Shown in pieces: positions 1 through 63,341 of a stretch of DNA of 64,000 bases. The translations under genes were made by a program, and so were the position numbers. The stretch lies in assembly GCA_947258545.1 (NCBI GenBank), contig CAMYJI010000004.1, positions 6,701 to 70,700 on the forward strand, written 5' to 3'. A model generated the notes under the pieces. That model was not told the DNA's origin, searched no databases, and was given only the letters and a program-made list of their open reading frames with translations. Numbering within the stretch: the stretch's first letter is position 1; every line of letters starts with the position of its first letter. The DNA is from an uncultured Ectothiorhodospiraceae bacterium (GTDB lineage Bacteria > Pseudomonadota > Gammaproteobacteria > UBA9214).

Positions 1-48
1 CCGGCCTTCGCCGGAATGACGAAAGATGAGTTAATCAGGCCTTCCCTA
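1..48. repeat. CGTC-type REP palindrome plus terminal motif (truncated by window edge)
   Basis: CCGGCCTTCGCCGGAATGACG followed by ATCAGGCCTTCCCTA; the same motifs occur at 13080-13214 and 45289-45425. Confidence 0.8.
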
Positions 49-12773: not shown

Positions 12774-12849
12774 GGGGCCATAGCTCAGCTGGGAGAGCAC
12801 TTGCATGGCATGCAAGGGGTCGGCGGTTCGATCCCGCCTGGCTCCACCA
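12774..12849 (+). tRNA. tRNA-Ala(GGC)
   Basis: 76 nt GGGGCCA..TGGCTCCACCA; anticodon arm CTTGC-ATGGCAT-GCAAG; G3:U70 pair; TTCGA T-loop. Confidence 0.97.
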
Positions 12850-12884: not shown

Positions 12885-12999
12885 ATTCCGCTACCGCAAC
12901 ACGCAGCTGCCTTCTGATTATTCTGTAGTGCAGCAGCCCCGTGTCCACATCTCAATTTTTGGCTCTTCAGGGGAATTTGTGATTAGACTTCCCTGATTT

Positions 13000-13214
13000 C
13001 GTCATTCCGGCGCATGCCGGAATCCAGGTGTTCCACTCAATTATCAAGCGATTGTTTTGCGGCAACACGCACTTATCGCTAAGGAAGACCTGATCAAATC
13101 ATCCTTCGTCATTCCGGCGAAAGCCGGAATCCAGCAACCGCCTTATTAGCACCTGCTGGATTCCGGGTCTCCGATACGCTTCGCCCGGAATGACGGCTTG
13201 ATAAGGCCTTCCTA
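13000..13214. repeat. CGTC-type REP cluster (3 units) downstream of the GIY-YIG gene
   Basis: CGTCATTCCGG-N-CCGGAATCCAG at 13000-13027 and 13107-13134; inverted copy at 13156-13195. Confidence 0.9.
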
Positions 13215-13502
13215 AATCAGATCCGGATATAAATCTCCCCAGCGCGGGTTCAGTTCTTCAATCGTCTTTATCTTCCACGCCCGCTTCCAGTTTTTGATGG
13301 CTTTTTCCCGCTGAATGGCGGATTCCATCGTGTCATGCATTTCATACCAGACCAAAATATACACACCATATTTACCGGTAAAGCTTTCAACCAGATTATT
13401 CTTGTGTTCCCAAACCCGCTTAAGCAGGTTTGAAGTAACGCCCGTGTATAGAGTTCCATTGCGTTTACTGGCTAAAATATACACGCACGGTTGCTTCTCC
13501 AT
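13212..13502 (-). CDS. Small stand-alone GIY-YIG nuclease
   Basis: 96 aa; VYILAS.RNGTLYTGVT.NL.KRVWEH, AIQREKAIKNWKRAWKI..IEELNPRW.DL. Confidence 0.92.
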   Translation of the reverse strand: MEKQPCVYILASKRNGTLYTGVTSNLLKRVWEHKNNLVESFTGKYGVYILVWYEMHDTMESAIQREKAIKNWKRAWKIKTIEELNPRWGDLYPDLI

Positions 13503-13523
13503 ACCACCTTTCTAGCATAATCC

Positions 13524-13801
13524 CTGGATTCCGGCCTTCGCCGGAATGACGTCTTTATACACAGTATTAGGGAAAGTCTGGTAATACCATCATTCCGGGA
13601 GCAGCGTAGCGGATACCCGAAATCCAGTCCTTGGTCATCAGGCAGCTACTGGATTCCGGCCTTCGCCGGAATGACGTCTTTATACACAGTATTAGGGAAA
13701 GTCTGATAAAACCGTCATTCCGGTCGGAGCGTAGCGGATACCCGGAATCCAGTAGTTAATAATCTGTCAGGTATTGGATTCCGGCGTGCGCCGGAATGAC
13801 G
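13524..13801. repeat. CGTC-type REP cluster (5 units) upstream of the GIY-YIG gene, with a 57-bp exact duplication
   Basis: Units at 13524-13551, 13588-13627, 13649-13676, 13713-13752 and 13774-13801 in alternating orientation; 13524-13580 is identical to 13649-13705. Confidence 0.9.
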
Positions 13802-13849
13802 AATCATTCAAGGGCGCCCACGAATATTTCTACCGAGGCCAATTTCCAT

Positions 13850-14982: not shown

Positions 14983-15465
14983 GTGAAAGGCATATGTGAA
15001 AAATTACTGGCACATCCCGGGTTCAGGGAAGGTGAACACTGGAAACGGCTGTATTTTTCGGCAAATGAGGACATCATTTCAGAAGGCGATAACGGCCGCG
15101 AAGTCTTTTTGCTGCAGCGCGGGACCGTGAGGGTGACGGGTTCGGTCCAGTTGCAAAAGGGGAGCGCGATCCATCCGGGTTTTTGTGACCTCACGGACAA
15201 TGCCGTGTTCGGTGAATTCGGTCTCCTCAGTCGCAACCAGCGCAGCGCCTCGGTGTGTAGCGTCAGCGACTGCGAGATCATCGTCATGGACGGAAGTCGC
15301 CTGCTGGAGTTCTTCGAGCACCAGCCCGAAATGGGCTACCGTTTCCTGCTGGAATTGCTGGAGAACTCGGCCCGGCGTCTTGACCAGACCAACCGCAAGC
15401 TGCTCAAGATGCTGGCCTGGGGGCTACAGGCCCGCAACCTGGATTCCTGCCTTTCCGGGACATAG
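14983..15465 (+). CDS. Stand-alone cyclic nucleotide-binding domain protein
   Basis: IISEGD..VFLLQRGTVRV, FGEFGLL..RSASV; no C-terminal HTH visible. Confidence 0.85.
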   Translation: MKGICEKLLAHPGFREGEHWKRLYFSANEDIISEGDNGREVFLLQRGTVRVTGSVQLQKGSAIHPGFCDLTDNAVFGEFGLLSRNQRSASVCSVSDCEIIVMDGSRLLEFFEHQPEMGYRFLLELLENSARRLDQTNRKLLKMLAWGLQARNLDSCLSGT

Positions 15466-45017: not shown

Positions 45018-45425
45018 GTAGGGTGCGCTGTGCGCACCAGAGATAGCCACGGAATCCACGGAAGAACACGGAAAGATAAAAGCTCGAAACGTGAAACACG
45101 ATGCGAGTAGGTTGGGTAAAGGAGCGAAAGCGACGTACCCAACATGATACGGGACTGATTTTATCCCCTCTCCCCAACCCTCTCCCGGAGGGAGAGGGAG
45201 TTAACGGGTAGCAAGTAGGTTGGGTAAAGGAGCAATAGCGACGTACCCAACACAAGGCGGGACTGCTTGACGCTGGCGATAATTAAGTTGAGGAAGGCCT
45301 GATTAACGCATCTTGCGTCATTCCGGCGAAGGCCGGAATCCAGTAGCGTTGTGATTACCAACTACTGGATTCCGGGTCGCAGCTCAGCTCCGCCCGGAAT
45401 GACGGCTTGATCAGACTTATCTTAA
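45018..45425. repeat. Mosaic of five short repeat families
   Basis: GTAG-GGTGCGC-TGT-GCGCACC (45018-45038); CACGGAA x3 (45047-45074); GTAGGTTGGGTA..TACCCAAC x2 (45107, 45215); CCCCTCTCCCCAACCCTCTCCC..GGGAGAGGG (45165-45210); CGTC REP pair (45316-45404). Confidence 0.85.
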
Positions 45426-58772: not shown

Positions 58773-60160
58773 TCCAGCCAGTCCTTGCCCGGCGCCTGGT
58801 CTATCCGCTGCACGAGCGCCTCCTGAAACGGCCGACCTTTGCCTACCTGGCAGAGCTGGAACAGAGCCAGTGGCTGTCGCGGGAAGGGATGGAACAGCTG
58901 CAAGAGCTGAAGCTGGCCGGGTTGCTTGATGCGGCCTGGCAACATTGCCCCTGGCACCGGGAACGGCTGATGGCAACCGGTATTGACACCGAGAGACCTG
59001 TATCGCTCGCGGACCTGCAGCGCCTGCCCACCATGGACAAGCAGGCTGCCGTTACCCATGGCGAGCAGATGGTCTGGCACGGGGTGCCTGGAGGCACCTT
59101 TCAATACAACACCGGCGGCTCCAGCGGCCAGCCGCTGATCTTTTACTACGGCCGCCGGCGCCAGGCCTCGGATGCCGCGGGCCGCATGCGGGCCCGGCGC
59201 TGGTGGGGGGTGGAGCCGGGCGACCCGGAGGTCTACCTGTGGGGCGCCCCGGTGGAGCTCGACAAGACCGACCGCATCAAGGCGCTGCGTGACCGCCTGC
59301 TGAACCAGCTGGTACTGAACGCCTTCGAGATGTCACCCGCACATATGGACGAATATGCCCGGGCCATCCAGTCCTTCCAGCCGCACTGTCTCTACGGCTA
59401 TGCCAGCTCAGTGGCGCTGCTGGCCGCCCATGTCCTCGACCGGGGCATGCAACTGCACCTGCCCCGCTTGAAGGTGGTCTGCACCACGGGTGAGCCCCTG
59501 TTCGACCATCAGCGGCAACTGATCGGCGAGGCCTTCGGCGTGCCGGTGGCCAATGAATTCGGCAGCCGCGATATCGGCTTCACGGCCCACGAAACTCCGG
59601 AAGGCCAGCTGCTGCTGATGAGCGAGAGCATCATCCTGGAAGTGCTGGATGAGCAGGGACAGCCCGTGGCGCCCGGAGCGACCGGCGAGGCGGTGATGAC
59701 CGCACTGGAGTCCTTCGCCCAGCCCTTTATCCGCTACCGTACCGGTGACGTCGTGAGGCTGTCTGAGACGCCCTGCCAGGCTGGGCGAGGGCTGCATGTG
59801 ATTGACGAGGTAGTGGGCCGGAGCACCGACTTCGTCGTAACGACCGATGGCACTATCATGCATGCCCTGGCGGTGATCTATGTCCTGCGTGCGATACCCG
59901 GCGTGGGGGAGTTCAAGATCGTGCAGCACAGCCTGCAGGACATCGAGGTCCAGGTGGTGCCCAATGCCCGCTGGGAAGAGGGCGGCCGCGCGGCCATCGA
60001 ATCCGGGTTGCAGCAGCGCCTCGGCACGGATGTCCGCATCACCATTCGTCTGGTCGAGGCCATCCCCCCCGAGCCATCCGGCAAGCACCGTTACGTGGTC
60101 AGCCATGTCCCATTATCGGATGGTCTGAAGCAGGCCGGCCAAGAGCCGACCCATCAGTAG
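58769..60160 (+). CDS. Phenylacetate-CoA ligase family / CapK-like adenylate-forming enzyme
   Basis: NTGGSSGQP, NEFGSRD, PFIRYRTGD, GRSTD, SGKHRYV. Confidence 0.9.
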   Translation: MIQPVLARRLVYPLHERLLKRPTFAYLAELEQSQWLSREGMEQLQELKLAGLLDAAWQHCPWHRERLMATGIDTERPVSLADLQRLPTMDKQAAVTHGEQMVWHGVPGGTFQYNTGGSSGQPLIFYYGRRRQASDAAGRMRARRWWGVEPGDPEVYLWGAPVELDKTDRIKALRDRLLNQLVLNAFEMSPAHMDEYARAIQSFQPHCLYGYASSVALLAAHVLDRGMQLHLPRLKVVCTTGEPLFDHQRQLIGEAFGVPVANEFGSRDIGFTAHETPEGQLLLMSESIILEVLDEQGQPVAPGATGEAVMTALESFAQPFIRYRTGDVVRLSETPCQAGRGLHVIDEVVGRSTDFVVTTDGTIMHALAVIYVLRAIPGVGEFKIVQHSLQDIEVQVVPNARWEEGGRAAIESGLQQRLGTDVRITIRLVEAIPPEPSGKHRYVVSHVPLSDGLKQAGQEPTHQ

Positions 60161-60500
60161 GGCCGAATTCATTTGTAGGGCCGAATTCATTCGGCCAACA
60201 GCAGTAAGATCACCGTTGTAGGGCCGAATTCATTCGGCCAACAGCTGTGCTGACAGGATGAATGTTACTGGTCGAATGAATTCGACCCTACAGTTTGCTA
60301 GGAGAGGGTATGCCGCTGGTCGAATGAATTCGACCATACAGTTTACCAGGGGATGGAATGCCGCTGGTCGAATGAATTCGACCCTACAGCTGTCCTATGA
60401 AGAGCGAGCAGATAACCATTGTAGGGCCGAATTCATTCGGCCAACAACTATCCTGCGAAGAGCGAGCAGATCACCGTTGTAGGGCCGAATTCATTCGGCC
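60157..60500. repeat. GTAG-type REP array upstream of RAYT
   Basis: GTAGGGCCGAATTCATTCGGCC at 60157 (truncated), 60175, 60218, 60421, 60479; inverted copies at 60270, 60318, 60366. Confidence 0.92.
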
Positions 60501-60537
60501 AACAGCCACCATTACCATTGGAGACAAGGAGGTCACC

Positions 60538-61017
60538 ATGTCCTACGACACATTACGCCGGGGGCGTCATTCCCTGCAGCATCAGGTCTACTGCATCACC
60601 ACGGTTACCCGTGATCGCCAGCCTTTGTTCACGGATATCACCACAGCACGCCTGCTGGTTCGCGAACTCCGGCGCCTGCACGAACAGGGTGATGTTATAT
60701 CCCTTGCTTGGGTTGTCATGCCTGATCATCTACACTGGTTGATTCAACTCAATGAACACCGGCCCCTCTCCACGGTTGTGAAGACTCTCAAAGCCCGTTC
60801 AGCACTCTCTATCAACCGCTACCTGTGTCAGTACGGGAGCCTCTGGCAACGAGCGTATTATGACCGTGCTGCCAGGAAGGATGAGGATATTCGCCAGATT
60901 GCCCGATATATCGTTGCCAACCCGTTGCGAGCGGGCCTGGTCCGGGATATTGGCGATTACCCCCATTGGGATTGCATCTGGATGACGGATCGCGATGAAA
61001 CGCCGCTGGTCGAATGA
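60538..61017 (+). mobile_element. REP-associated tyrosine transposase (RAYT, Y1/HUH)
   Basis: LRRGRHS..VYCITTVT, WVVMPDHLHW (HUH), LWQRAYYDR, YIVANP; AGGAGG RBS; flanked by REPs. Confidence 0.92.
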
Positions 61018-61077
61018 ATTCGACCCTACAGTTTGCTAGGAGAGGGTATGTCGCTGGTCGAATGAATTCGACCCTAC
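61008..61077. repeat. Two inverted GTAG REPs downstream of RAYT
   Basis: GGTCGAATGAATTCGACCCTAC at 61008-61029 and 61056-61077. Confidence 0.9.
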
Positions 61078-61203
61078 AGTTTTGCTGACAGAAGGAAGGC
61101 ATCTTGTCTAAAATGGTTGAATTATTCACTCAATCAGCTGAAGAGCTAAAAAAATAAACACGGGGCTGGACATGAAGCAATCGGACAGGGATCTTTAAAG
61201 AAC

Positions 61204-63262: not shown

Positions 63263-63341
63263 CGTCATCCCGGCGCAGGCCGGGATCCAGATCTACCAAA
63301 TAGCTTTATTTTCCTGGATTCCGGCCTGCGCCGGAATGACG
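63263..63341. repeat. Inverted pair of CGTC-type REPs
   Basis: CGTCATCCCGGCGCAGGCCGGGATCCAG (63263-63290) and CTGGATTCCGGCCTGCGCCGGAATGACG (63314-63341), between convergent genes. Confidence 0.88.

Follow-up and report, generated by a model that had tools for sequence, protein, structure and literature searches.

Does a small nuclease gene spread the hairpins among which it sits, or do gene and hairpins travel together as the cargo of something else? The question is raised by a 64,000-nucleotide stretch of DNA from an uncultured Ectothiorhodospiraceae bacterium, referred to below as the window, which corresponds to G000:C4:6701-70700 in the organism's own draft genome (G000; 3.26 Mb in 164 contigs). 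A first interpretation, made from the letters of the window and referred to here as the sequence-only reading, had drawn attention to a gene for a 96-amino-acid (aa) GIY-YIG protein with three palindromes on one side and five on the other, and had suggested that the nuclease is the cognate enzyme that spreads or maintains these CGTC-tagged repeats. The layout is confirmed by the open reading frame (ORF), by a Pfam match, and by shuffled sequences, none of 100 of which reproduced the palindromes. The suggestion itself holds in part. The nuclease does appear to be the cognate enzyme of the repeats, as a member of the published system of the Ssn nuclease and its Ssn-related motifs (SRMs), while the idea that it spreads them runs up against IS5- and ISL3-type tips, target duplications, and SRMs in genomes in which no ssn was found.

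The explanation that we favor, with a probability of roughly 75%, is that the Ssn/SRM pair is cargo and is dispersed by DDE transposases. The pairing of gene and hairpins has already been published (Chenal et al., Nat Commun 2025;16:2388, PMC11893778) and is hence not new. One point does go beyond the text of that paper: the carriers of Ssn cassettes and their hairpins are conventional inverted-repeat elements with target duplications, and these elements nest into one another, leaving many gene-less or internally deleted copies.

The nuclease very probably belongs to the Ssn family

The gene at the center of the island is as follows.

13212..13502, minus strand: ssn, encoding a 96-aa single-domain GIY-YIG nuclease (ORF and Pfam match)

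The protein matches PF01541 (GIY-YIG) over residues 5-78 with an E value of 8.4e-18 and a score of 64.9 bits (cut-off 22.6); it matched nothing else in Pfam. Its sole NCBIfam match, to TIGR01453, is below threshold (20.3 bits against a cut-off of 56), and a sequence search of the PDB returned spurious WD40 matches and no related solved structure. The gene is single-copy in G000. Residues Y8, Y19, and E66 are invariant across an alignment of five sequences (alignment A1). The catalytic residues of Neisseria meningitidis SsnA are Y6, Y17, and E64 (PMC11893778), to which these three would correspond through a two-residue offset.

The closest named relatives among the matches listed came from a Candidatus Thiodiazotropha metagenome-assembled genome (MAG) (88% identity), a Solemya symbiont (79%), and a Sedimenticola MAG (78%). 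Against the sole Ssn-like gene of Dechloromonas denitrificans ATCC BAA-841, 57 of 95 residues are identical (60%; E 1e-44). The D. denitrificans assembly in Supplementary Data 4 of PMC11893778, which is assumed to be the same strain, is marked YES for an ssnA homolog, with >60% identity and assignment to cd10448; homologs in that study were defined by tblastn at E < 1e-10. SsnA itself is a 94-aa protein of cd10448 (PMC11893778).

The gene occupies differing genomic places in G000, G022, and the Thiodiazotropha MAG, with no shared synteny. G022 also holds a second ssn paralog (G022:C4:112823-113107), 48% identical and about 100 kb from its 79% copy on the same contig. Weak matches (31 to 40% identity) in genomes of the same genus turned out to be a separate small GIY-YIG protein without SRM flanks, which we take to be YhbQ-like.

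In Neisseria, the hairpin recognized by SsnA is the NTS, CGTCATTCCCGCGMAVGCGGGAATCYRG, and SRM is the name of the wider class; purified SsnA and three of its homologs bind this hairpin only when it is single-stranded DNA (ssDNA), cutting a few nucleotides upstream (5') of it, and SsnA in N. meningitidis reduces transformation by NTS-bearing DNA (PMC11893778). With biochemistry carried over from these published relatives, the window protein would recognize its CGTC...CCAG hairpin in ssDNA and, a few nucleotides to the 5' side of the CGTC tag, cut the strand that carries it. Taken together, we consider it very likely that the 96-aa gene and its CGTC...CCAG hairpins are a member of the Ssn nuclease/SRM (NTS) system. 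This adds a more distant member, with an ATTCCGG stem, to a family that is of interest as a source of programmable single-strand DNA cutters.

Hairpins surround ssn in a fixed arrangement

Eight hairpins of the general form CGTCATTCCGG, loop, CCGGAATCCAG surround the gene, three on the low-coordinate side and five on the high-coordinate side. Five are short (28 nt, with a 6-nt spacer between CCGG arms; starts at 13000, 13107, 13524, 13649, and 13774) and three are 40-nt long-loop forms (starts at 13156, 13588, and 13713, the second of them degenerate).

13000..13027, plus strand: short SRM next to the left tip, inverted relative to the gene; the cassette's original downstream SRM (published SRM pattern)
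13107..13134, no strand: short SRM, 28 nt, low-coordinate side, inverted relative to the gene (published SRM pattern)
13156..13195, no strand: long-loop hairpin, 40 nt, low-coordinate side (sequence)
13524..13551, minus strand: canonical upstream SRM, on the gene strand (published SRM pattern and folding)
13588..13627, no strand: degenerate long hairpin (sequence)
13649..13676, minus strand: short SRM, 28 nt, on the gene strand (published SRM pattern)
13713..13752, no strand: long-form hairpin (sequence)
13524..13773, no strand: two tandem 125-bp units holding the hairpins at 13588-13627, 13649-13676, and 13713-13752 (repeat family D1)
13774..13801, minus strand: short SRM adjoining the tip, gene-upstream side (sequence)

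The palindromes nearest to the gene had been placed 17 to 22 bp from the ORF ends, which agrees with what we find: the hairpin at 13156-13195 ends 16 nt from the end of the stop codon, and the SRM at 13524-13551 ends 21 nt before the start codon, with a ribosome-binding stretch in between. As ssDNA, the latter SRM folds at -8.9 kcal/mol (z -4.5) and the one at 13000-13027 at -9.0 kcal/mol (z -4.0). The tandem family D1 has a 125-nt period and 88% identity. In each unit, a 21-nt spacer separates a short SRM from an inverted long hairpin, and the unit also contains the remnant of a tip from a miniature inverted-repeat transposable element (MITE).

The core ATTCCGG-N6-CCGGAAT occurs seven times in the window and not once in any of the 100 shuffles used as controls; CGTCATTCCGG with at most one mismatch occurs 15 times, against a shuffle mean of 2.16 and a maximum of 8. 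Across the 3.26 Mb of G000 a regular expression finds 26 core palindromes, and seven of these plus one degenerate copy lie within the 0.8-kb ssn island; short SRMs number 19 in the genome. The published SRM pattern, HGTCWYN(0-2)YYVSBRHN(0-5)WNVSBRGN(0-2)RNCYNB (PMC11893778), matches seven hairpins of the window (13000, 13107, 13524, 13649, 45316, 63263, and 63314). On the flanks of ssn, the matches at 13000 and 13107 are inverted relative to the gene and those at 13524 and 13649 are on its strand, and the SRM at 13774-13801 is one base off the pattern (tail CCAA). The pattern also matches an unrelated site in a coding region, 15102-15128, which shows its background rate. An identity of the hairpins with integron attC sites was considered and dropped, since they appear to lack the attC core.

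The same arrangement recurs far beyond the window. One genome per species was scanned, and the best 80 of at least 552 relatives gave 79 homolog loci, at 59 to 88% identity and from many phyla. The enrichment of hairpins within 200 bp of homologs that the sequence-only reading had looked to was borne out: an SRM lies within that distance at 60 of the 79 loci and on both sides at 34, and SRM density near the gene is 28-fold that of the outer flanks (121 in 31,341 bp, or 3.86/kb, versus 83 in 610,532 bp, or 0.136/kb). The published survey gives 71% of ssnA homologs with an SRM nearby and 42% with SRMs on both sides (PMC11893778). Orientation is also regular. Where an upstream SRM is present (45 loci), the nearest one lies on the gene strand in 33 cases, mostly ending 9 to 40 nt before the start codon. 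Of the 49 nearest downstream SRMs, 41 are inverted, and 23 of those 41 begin 0 to 9 nt past the stop codon. The basic unit would thus consist of an SRM, a ribosome-binding site, ssn, and an inverted SRM, with the CGTC tags pointing outward.

Protein and repeat vary together, a point that the sequence-only reading had proposed to test. On the protein tree, stem type (CCGG versus CCCGC) changes 11 times; 200 shuffles gave 19.5 changes on average and never fewer than 15. The tree is poorly resolved (96 columns), only 61 of its 80 rows carry a label, and labels are shared among relatives. These data bear directly on the most skeptical view of the locus, that the neighborhood is incidental, the gene being a passenger and the hairpins merely parts of MITE inverted repeats. 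Hairpins are indeed found without the gene in most relatives, and the IS5-type tips described below carry another hairpin family (GTCATTGCGAG...) as well. We nevertheless hold this view to be very improbable, against a 28-fold enrichment with fixed geometry across 79 loci and many phyla, stems that co-vary with the protein, and relatives that bind and cut their own SRMs specifically (PMC11893778).

The ssn unit lies within an inserted 880-bp element

An empty site in a close relative, another of the points raised from the sequence, was found in G004, a genome of the same genus. It is syntenic with the window through glnS, tRNA-Ala, and the downstream gene, and lacks 12961-13840; deleting that interval together with one flanking octamer restores the G004 spacing to within 1 nt. 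Judged by this comparison, the ssn island is an inserted element.

12961..13840, no strand: entire ssn-bearing element, 880 bp, with imperfect inverted ends (comparison with G004 and G042)
12953..12960, plus strand: left flanking octamer CAATTTTT, candidate target-site duplication (partner at the right end)
13840..13847, no strand: right flanking octamer CAATTTCC, its first C shared with the element end (partner of the left octamer)
12961..12999, plus strand: left outer tip GGCTCTTCAGGGGAATTTGTG..., ISL3 type (tip comparison)
13802..13840, minus strand: right outer tip, minus-strand reading GGCCTCGGTAGAAATATTCGTGGG... (tip comparison)
12774..12849, plus strand: tRNA-Ala (GGC); the element begins 111 nt downstream

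Inverted repeats make up the outer 39 nt on either side and are found nowhere else in G000, and the two element ends, SRM included, are identical at 47 of 68 positions. Closer likeness comes from G042, the genome that holds the 88%-identical Ssn homolog: the left element end agrees with the right end of a G042 MITE at 57 of 67 positions, and the right outer tip with the left tip of that MITE at 29 of 41. An alternative reading of the G004 comparison, in which the indel stops on the right where the last SRM does, was dropped once these shared tips were recognized.

Insertion sequences (ISs) of the ISL3 family have the inverted repeat GGCTCTTCG and make 8-bp direct repeats (PMC6305408, Table 3; PMC11448079). 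The tip GGCTCTTCAGG begins at 12961, in keeping with ISL3-type inverted tips that begin GGCTCTTC; 8-bp duplications flank all seven G042 copies examined, and the octamers of the window element agree at 6 of 8 bases. The ssn unit would accordingly be the cargo of an ISL3-type inverted-repeat element inserted beside tRNA-Ala.

Most gene-less hairpin pairs are IS5-type MITEs

Gene-less copies had been reported at 1-21, 45316-45404, and 63263-63341, and all three are present. They fall in the following features, together with a further pair nested in the ssn island itself.

13083..13212, no strand: nested 130-bp hairpin-pair MITE, IS5-type tips, TAA flank on each side (tips)
1..45, no strand: last part of a gene-less hairpin-pair MITE whose start precedes the window, tip at G000:C4:6745 (tips)
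45292..45421, no strand: gene-less hairpin-pair MITE, IS5-type tips, hairpins at 45316-45404 (tips)
63263..63341, no strand: gene-less pair of short SRMs, IS5-type tips not recognizable (published SRM pattern)

The gene-less pairs of G000 consist of a short SRM, 21 nt, and an inverted long SRM, each pair lying in a unit roughly 130 bp long that has GGAAGGCCTGATTAAC as its tip. This tip matches 13 of 16 bases of GGAAGCTCTGATTAAT, the tip of a 1189-bp IS5-family IS at G000:C22:1-1189 (L140), whose 337-aa ORF matches DDE_Tnp_1 (PF01609; 5.8e-31) and DUF772 (6.4e-22). A T-N-A/G triplet precedes most of the 20 IS5-type tips listed, with clean matching triplets on both sides in about 3 or 4 of the 8 pairs read. 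On the strength of tips and triplets, we regard the gene-less hairpin pairs of G000 as IS5-type MITEs. The 1189-bp IS lies at contig ends, with C35 and C47 ends among them, and is probably multi-copy and breaking the assembly.

One such MITE, of 130 bp, has nested into the ssn island at the stop codon. It contains the short SRM at 13107-13134 and the long hairpin at 13156-13195, its 89-nt inverted-pair core folds at -31.1 kcal/mol (z -8.0), and its hairpin-pair unit is present many times in G001-G003. The insertion site is a TAA overlapping the stop codon of ssn (13212-13215; 13080-13082), with which the right tip of the MITE overlaps as well; the junction recreates a stop (TAG), leaving ORF length unchanged. 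Because G042 has 51 nt of homologous sequence between the ssn stop codon and its SRM, the hairpin closest to the end of the ORF is a secondary insertion, and 13000-13027 the original downstream SRM.

A second hairpin family in G000 (GTCATTGCGAG... / GTCATTGCGAGGAGCGAAGCGACGAAGC...) has the IS5-type tips of the SRM pairs too and, like them, begins with CGTCATT; it was seen at C40:1718, C41:22129, C47:6924, C47:21694, C66:5234, and C5:29600. This suggests either that tips and hairpins are combined as modules or that there is a second SRM-like class, for which we found no nuclease here.

Among relatives, SRMs are found far more widely than ssn

Short SRMs were counted in 24 genomes of the same family with the short-SRM pattern and a reversed-pattern control. 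They occur in 23 of the 24, and the control gave 0 everywhere. Close ssn homologs (E below 1e-20) occur in four, G016, G022, G023, and G024, the G024 copy being interrupted by TGA; G029, a genome of another family, has one as well. A profile search for ssn in G003, G012, G015, G018, and G025, which hold 28 to 40 SRMs each, found none. Two of these are nearly complete, G015 (37 SRMs) at 99% in 10 contigs and G018 (35 SRMs) at 95% in 9 contigs. Across the 24 genomes SRM counts follow neither ssn nor the IS5 transposase, and the comparison decides nothing between the possible movers. As the counts track neither gene, many of the copies are probably old.

Elements of the same build occur in several copies in G042, where the ISL3-like tips of the window element recur. 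One full-length ssn element is accompanied by at least eight near-full-length copies (79 to 100% identity) and by fragments, with internal deletions. The deletion derivatives (L104-L111 and L115-L121) share one junction, at which the first 48 nt of ssn are joined to about the last 70 nt. They are dispersed, and three of them agree with one another at 99 to 100% identity, a sign of recent spread. In some copies the loop of the right-hand SRM holds an additional insertion. All seven copies examined have the same sharp ends, GCTTGGTTAGATAAATTCGTGGG... and ...CCCACGAATTTTCCTGAAGAGCC, and all seven are flanked by 8-bp A+T-rich direct repeats, six of them perfect and one at 7 of 8. MITEs with GGCTCTTCAGCAAAAT in G042 share tips with its ssn elements. 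The ISL3-like tip motif is lineage-specific, being exact in just 1 of the 79 homolog loci.

DDE transposases are the probable movers

Target duplications were inspected in the G000, G042, and G044 lineages, G044 being a delta-proteobacterial MAG, and at two further MAG copies, L051 and L059. Three vehicle types emerge, with three duplication lengths of about 3, 8, and 11 bp, a spread that is hard to reconcile with one nuclease as the transposase. From tips and duplications we infer that the movement of gene and hairpins is probably driven by DDE transposases. Such enzymes, acting in trans on the tips, would disperse gene and hairpins, and the nuclease would not.

Several findings weigh against this explanation. 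The duplication of the window element agrees at just 6 of 8 bases (CAATTTTT and CAATTTCC), and the tie of its protein to N. meningitidis SsnA and to cd10448 in the CDD is indirect, through the D. denitrificans gene. An IS5-family transposase is present in 8 of the 24 same-family genomes and in 0 of the 4 of the same genus, without correlation to SRM counts. Searches of G042, G044, and ISL3 loci turned up no partner IS for either the 8-bp or the 11-bp vehicle. For the 8-bp vehicle, the tip motif in G042 was found at small elements only, and no ISL3 partner with the same tips emerged: six ISL3-transposase loci, the full transposase of G042 (contig C47) and five others, were considered as partners and set aside, as none has the GGCTCTTCAGG tip (GGCTCTT absent). 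Insertion sequences are often lost from MAGs. The absence of a partner IS is for that reason weak evidence either way.

G044 also counts against it. This MAG contains 11 complete elements (L128-L138; 461 to 650 bp) with CATAAGCGCTAACTTA tips in which ssn is the sole ORF, intact at 96 aa in eight of them; 11-bp duplications flank ten, six perfect and four with one mismatch, and no larger element with this tip was found in G044. With Ssn as the sole ORF and no larger partner, these elements have the appearance of autonomous ones. Their target duplications have G or C runs at both ends, and their size differences arise from insertions in SRM loops. L051 and L059 likewise have perfect 11-bp repeats. 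Four solitary related tips in G044 were followed up as possible transposase partners; they adjoin MITEs of about 200 bp or host genes, and no transposase. The tip CATAAGCGCTAACTTAA with 11-bp duplications may resemble the IS4/IS231 group, and a literature search on the IS4-type tip returned nothing usable.

One could suppose that Ssn does the transposing itself, or is something that the transposition machinery cannot do without, and that the tip-SRM-ssn-SRM-tip elements (417 to 880 bp) are autonomous miniature insertion sequences, of which gene-less pairs and internally deleted copies are non-autonomous derivatives, with host repair assisting Ssn. In its favor, some elements that are present in several copies and have both inverted ends and target duplications contain no ORF other than ssn (11 copies in G044, as well as L051 and L059). 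The single full-length copy in G042 with its deletion derivatives of one shared junction fits too, and no larger same-tip partner was found in either genome. The text of PMC11893778 mentions no duplications, direct repeats, terminal inverted repeats, MITEs, or REPINs, and none of the 20 titles and abstracts listed, out of 315 matching papers, describes a bacterial element of the tip-SRM-ssn-SRM-tip kind. Were it true, Ssn elements would be the smallest self-mobilizing bacterial elements, and a GIY-YIG class would be added to the known kinds of bacterial transposase. We consider it unlikely, on five grounds. Duplication length and tip sequence vary among closely related Ssn proteins. In each genome, unrelated gene-less MITEs or a true IS have the same tips (IS5-type in G000, GGCTCTTCAGCAAAAT in G042, and CATAAGCGCTCAAATA in G044, where MITEs share the tips of the ssn elements). 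The published Ssn cut site lies beside the SRM, 35 to 71 nt inside the element tips, and so cannot define the ends. SRMs persist in genomes in which no ssn was found. Finally, GIY-YIG nucleases are hydrolytic, and we know of none for which strand transfer has been described.

A further possibility was suggested by a second system in the window, which the sequence-only reading had rightly described as having the same layout.

60157..61078, no strand: RAYT-type Y1 transposase gene with repetitive extragenic palindromic (REP) sequences (Pfam match at 60586-60915; ORF by eye at about 60538-61017)

The REP-associated tyrosine transposase (RAYT) gene matches PF01797 at 60586-60915 (49.8 bits), with further PF01797 matches on three other contigs. 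Its GTAG REPs (GTAGGGCCGAATTCATTCGGCC) stand on both sides, in both orientations upstream and as two inverted copies downstream. By analogy, a RAYT-like Ssn would need no transposase: by cutting single strands at replication forks, it would copy or maintain individual SRM hairpins or hairpin pairs. Besides this parallel architecture, the strong association of gene and hairpin across phyla fits such a role, as does the SRM pair at 63263-63341 that lacks recognizable IS tips. The hypothesis is raised in the Discussion of PMC11893778, where NTS-ssnA-NTS is likened to insertion sequences and to RAYT/REP-BIME. It nonetheless seems to us quite doubtful, and more so than a transposase role. Most gene-less pairs of G000 have IS5-type tips, mostly after a T-N-A/G triplet, and SRM counts do not track ssn, as the five SRM-rich genomes above illustrate. 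The sole function demonstrated in vivo is the restriction of incoming ssDNA during transformation in Neisseria (PMC11893778).

The Ssn protein has the GIY-YIG fold and not the Y1 (HUH) fold, and the RAYT analogy is architectural, not chemical. To our knowledge, GIY-YIG enzymes hydrolyze DNA without a covalent intermediate of the Y1 transposase kind, and we know of no rejoining chemistry for any of them. Literature searches joining GIY-YIG with repetitive extragenic palindromic sequences found nothing, and those joining it with dRS3 found the Ssn paper alone. The statement in the sequence-only reading that CGTC-tagged repeats have no established mobilizer still stands.

Travel inside inverted-repeat elements gives SRM repeats a concrete route by which they could multiply without the nuclease. 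It also turns the question of whether Ssn mobilizes anything into a clean test, of ssn versus the DDE transposase.

Comparison with known systems

The nearest system is Ssn/NTS of Neisseria. Both have a single-domain GIY-YIG protein of about 95 aa, flanks built as CGTCAT, stem, loop, stem, and ATCCAG, inverted with one on each side, and a patchy distribution across phyla. They differ in stem, ATTCCGG here and ATTCCCGC in Neisseria, and here a 16-nt long-loop variant and hairpin pairs are common while copy number is low. Here, too, the unit is enclosed by a larger element that has inverted ends and target duplications, which sets it apart from the published one as described in the text of PMC11893778. 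The dRS3/NIME arrays of Neisseria contain the same hairpin family in clustered intergenic arrays, as here, with nearly 50% of dRS3 copies being NTS (PMC11893778). Copies there run to hundreds and here to tens, and the transformation role has been demonstrated in Neisseria only.

RAYT/REP-BIME/REPIN systems share the single small gene among its own hairpins, with an asymmetric tag and frequent inverted pairs. The enzyme there is an HUH protein with a covalent tyrosine intermediate, whereas here it is a hydrolytic GIY-YIG nuclease. REP and IS200/IS605 elements are not known to have terminal tips or target duplications; the ssn elements and hairpin-pair MITEs have both.

In their outer parts, the elements come closest to trans-mobilized MITEs and cassettes. 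Mobile insertion cassettes of Bacillus carry passengers and are moved by DDE transposases in trans. Those systems and this one have in common a high number of copies and derivatives with internal deletions, and the ISL3-derived MITE of Microcystis (PMC11448079) likewise has IS-like inverted tips, duplications of family length, and no transposase gene. For two of the three vehicle types here no partner IS was found, and what sets the ssn elements apart is their cargo, a nuclease together with its own recognition hairpins just inside both tips.

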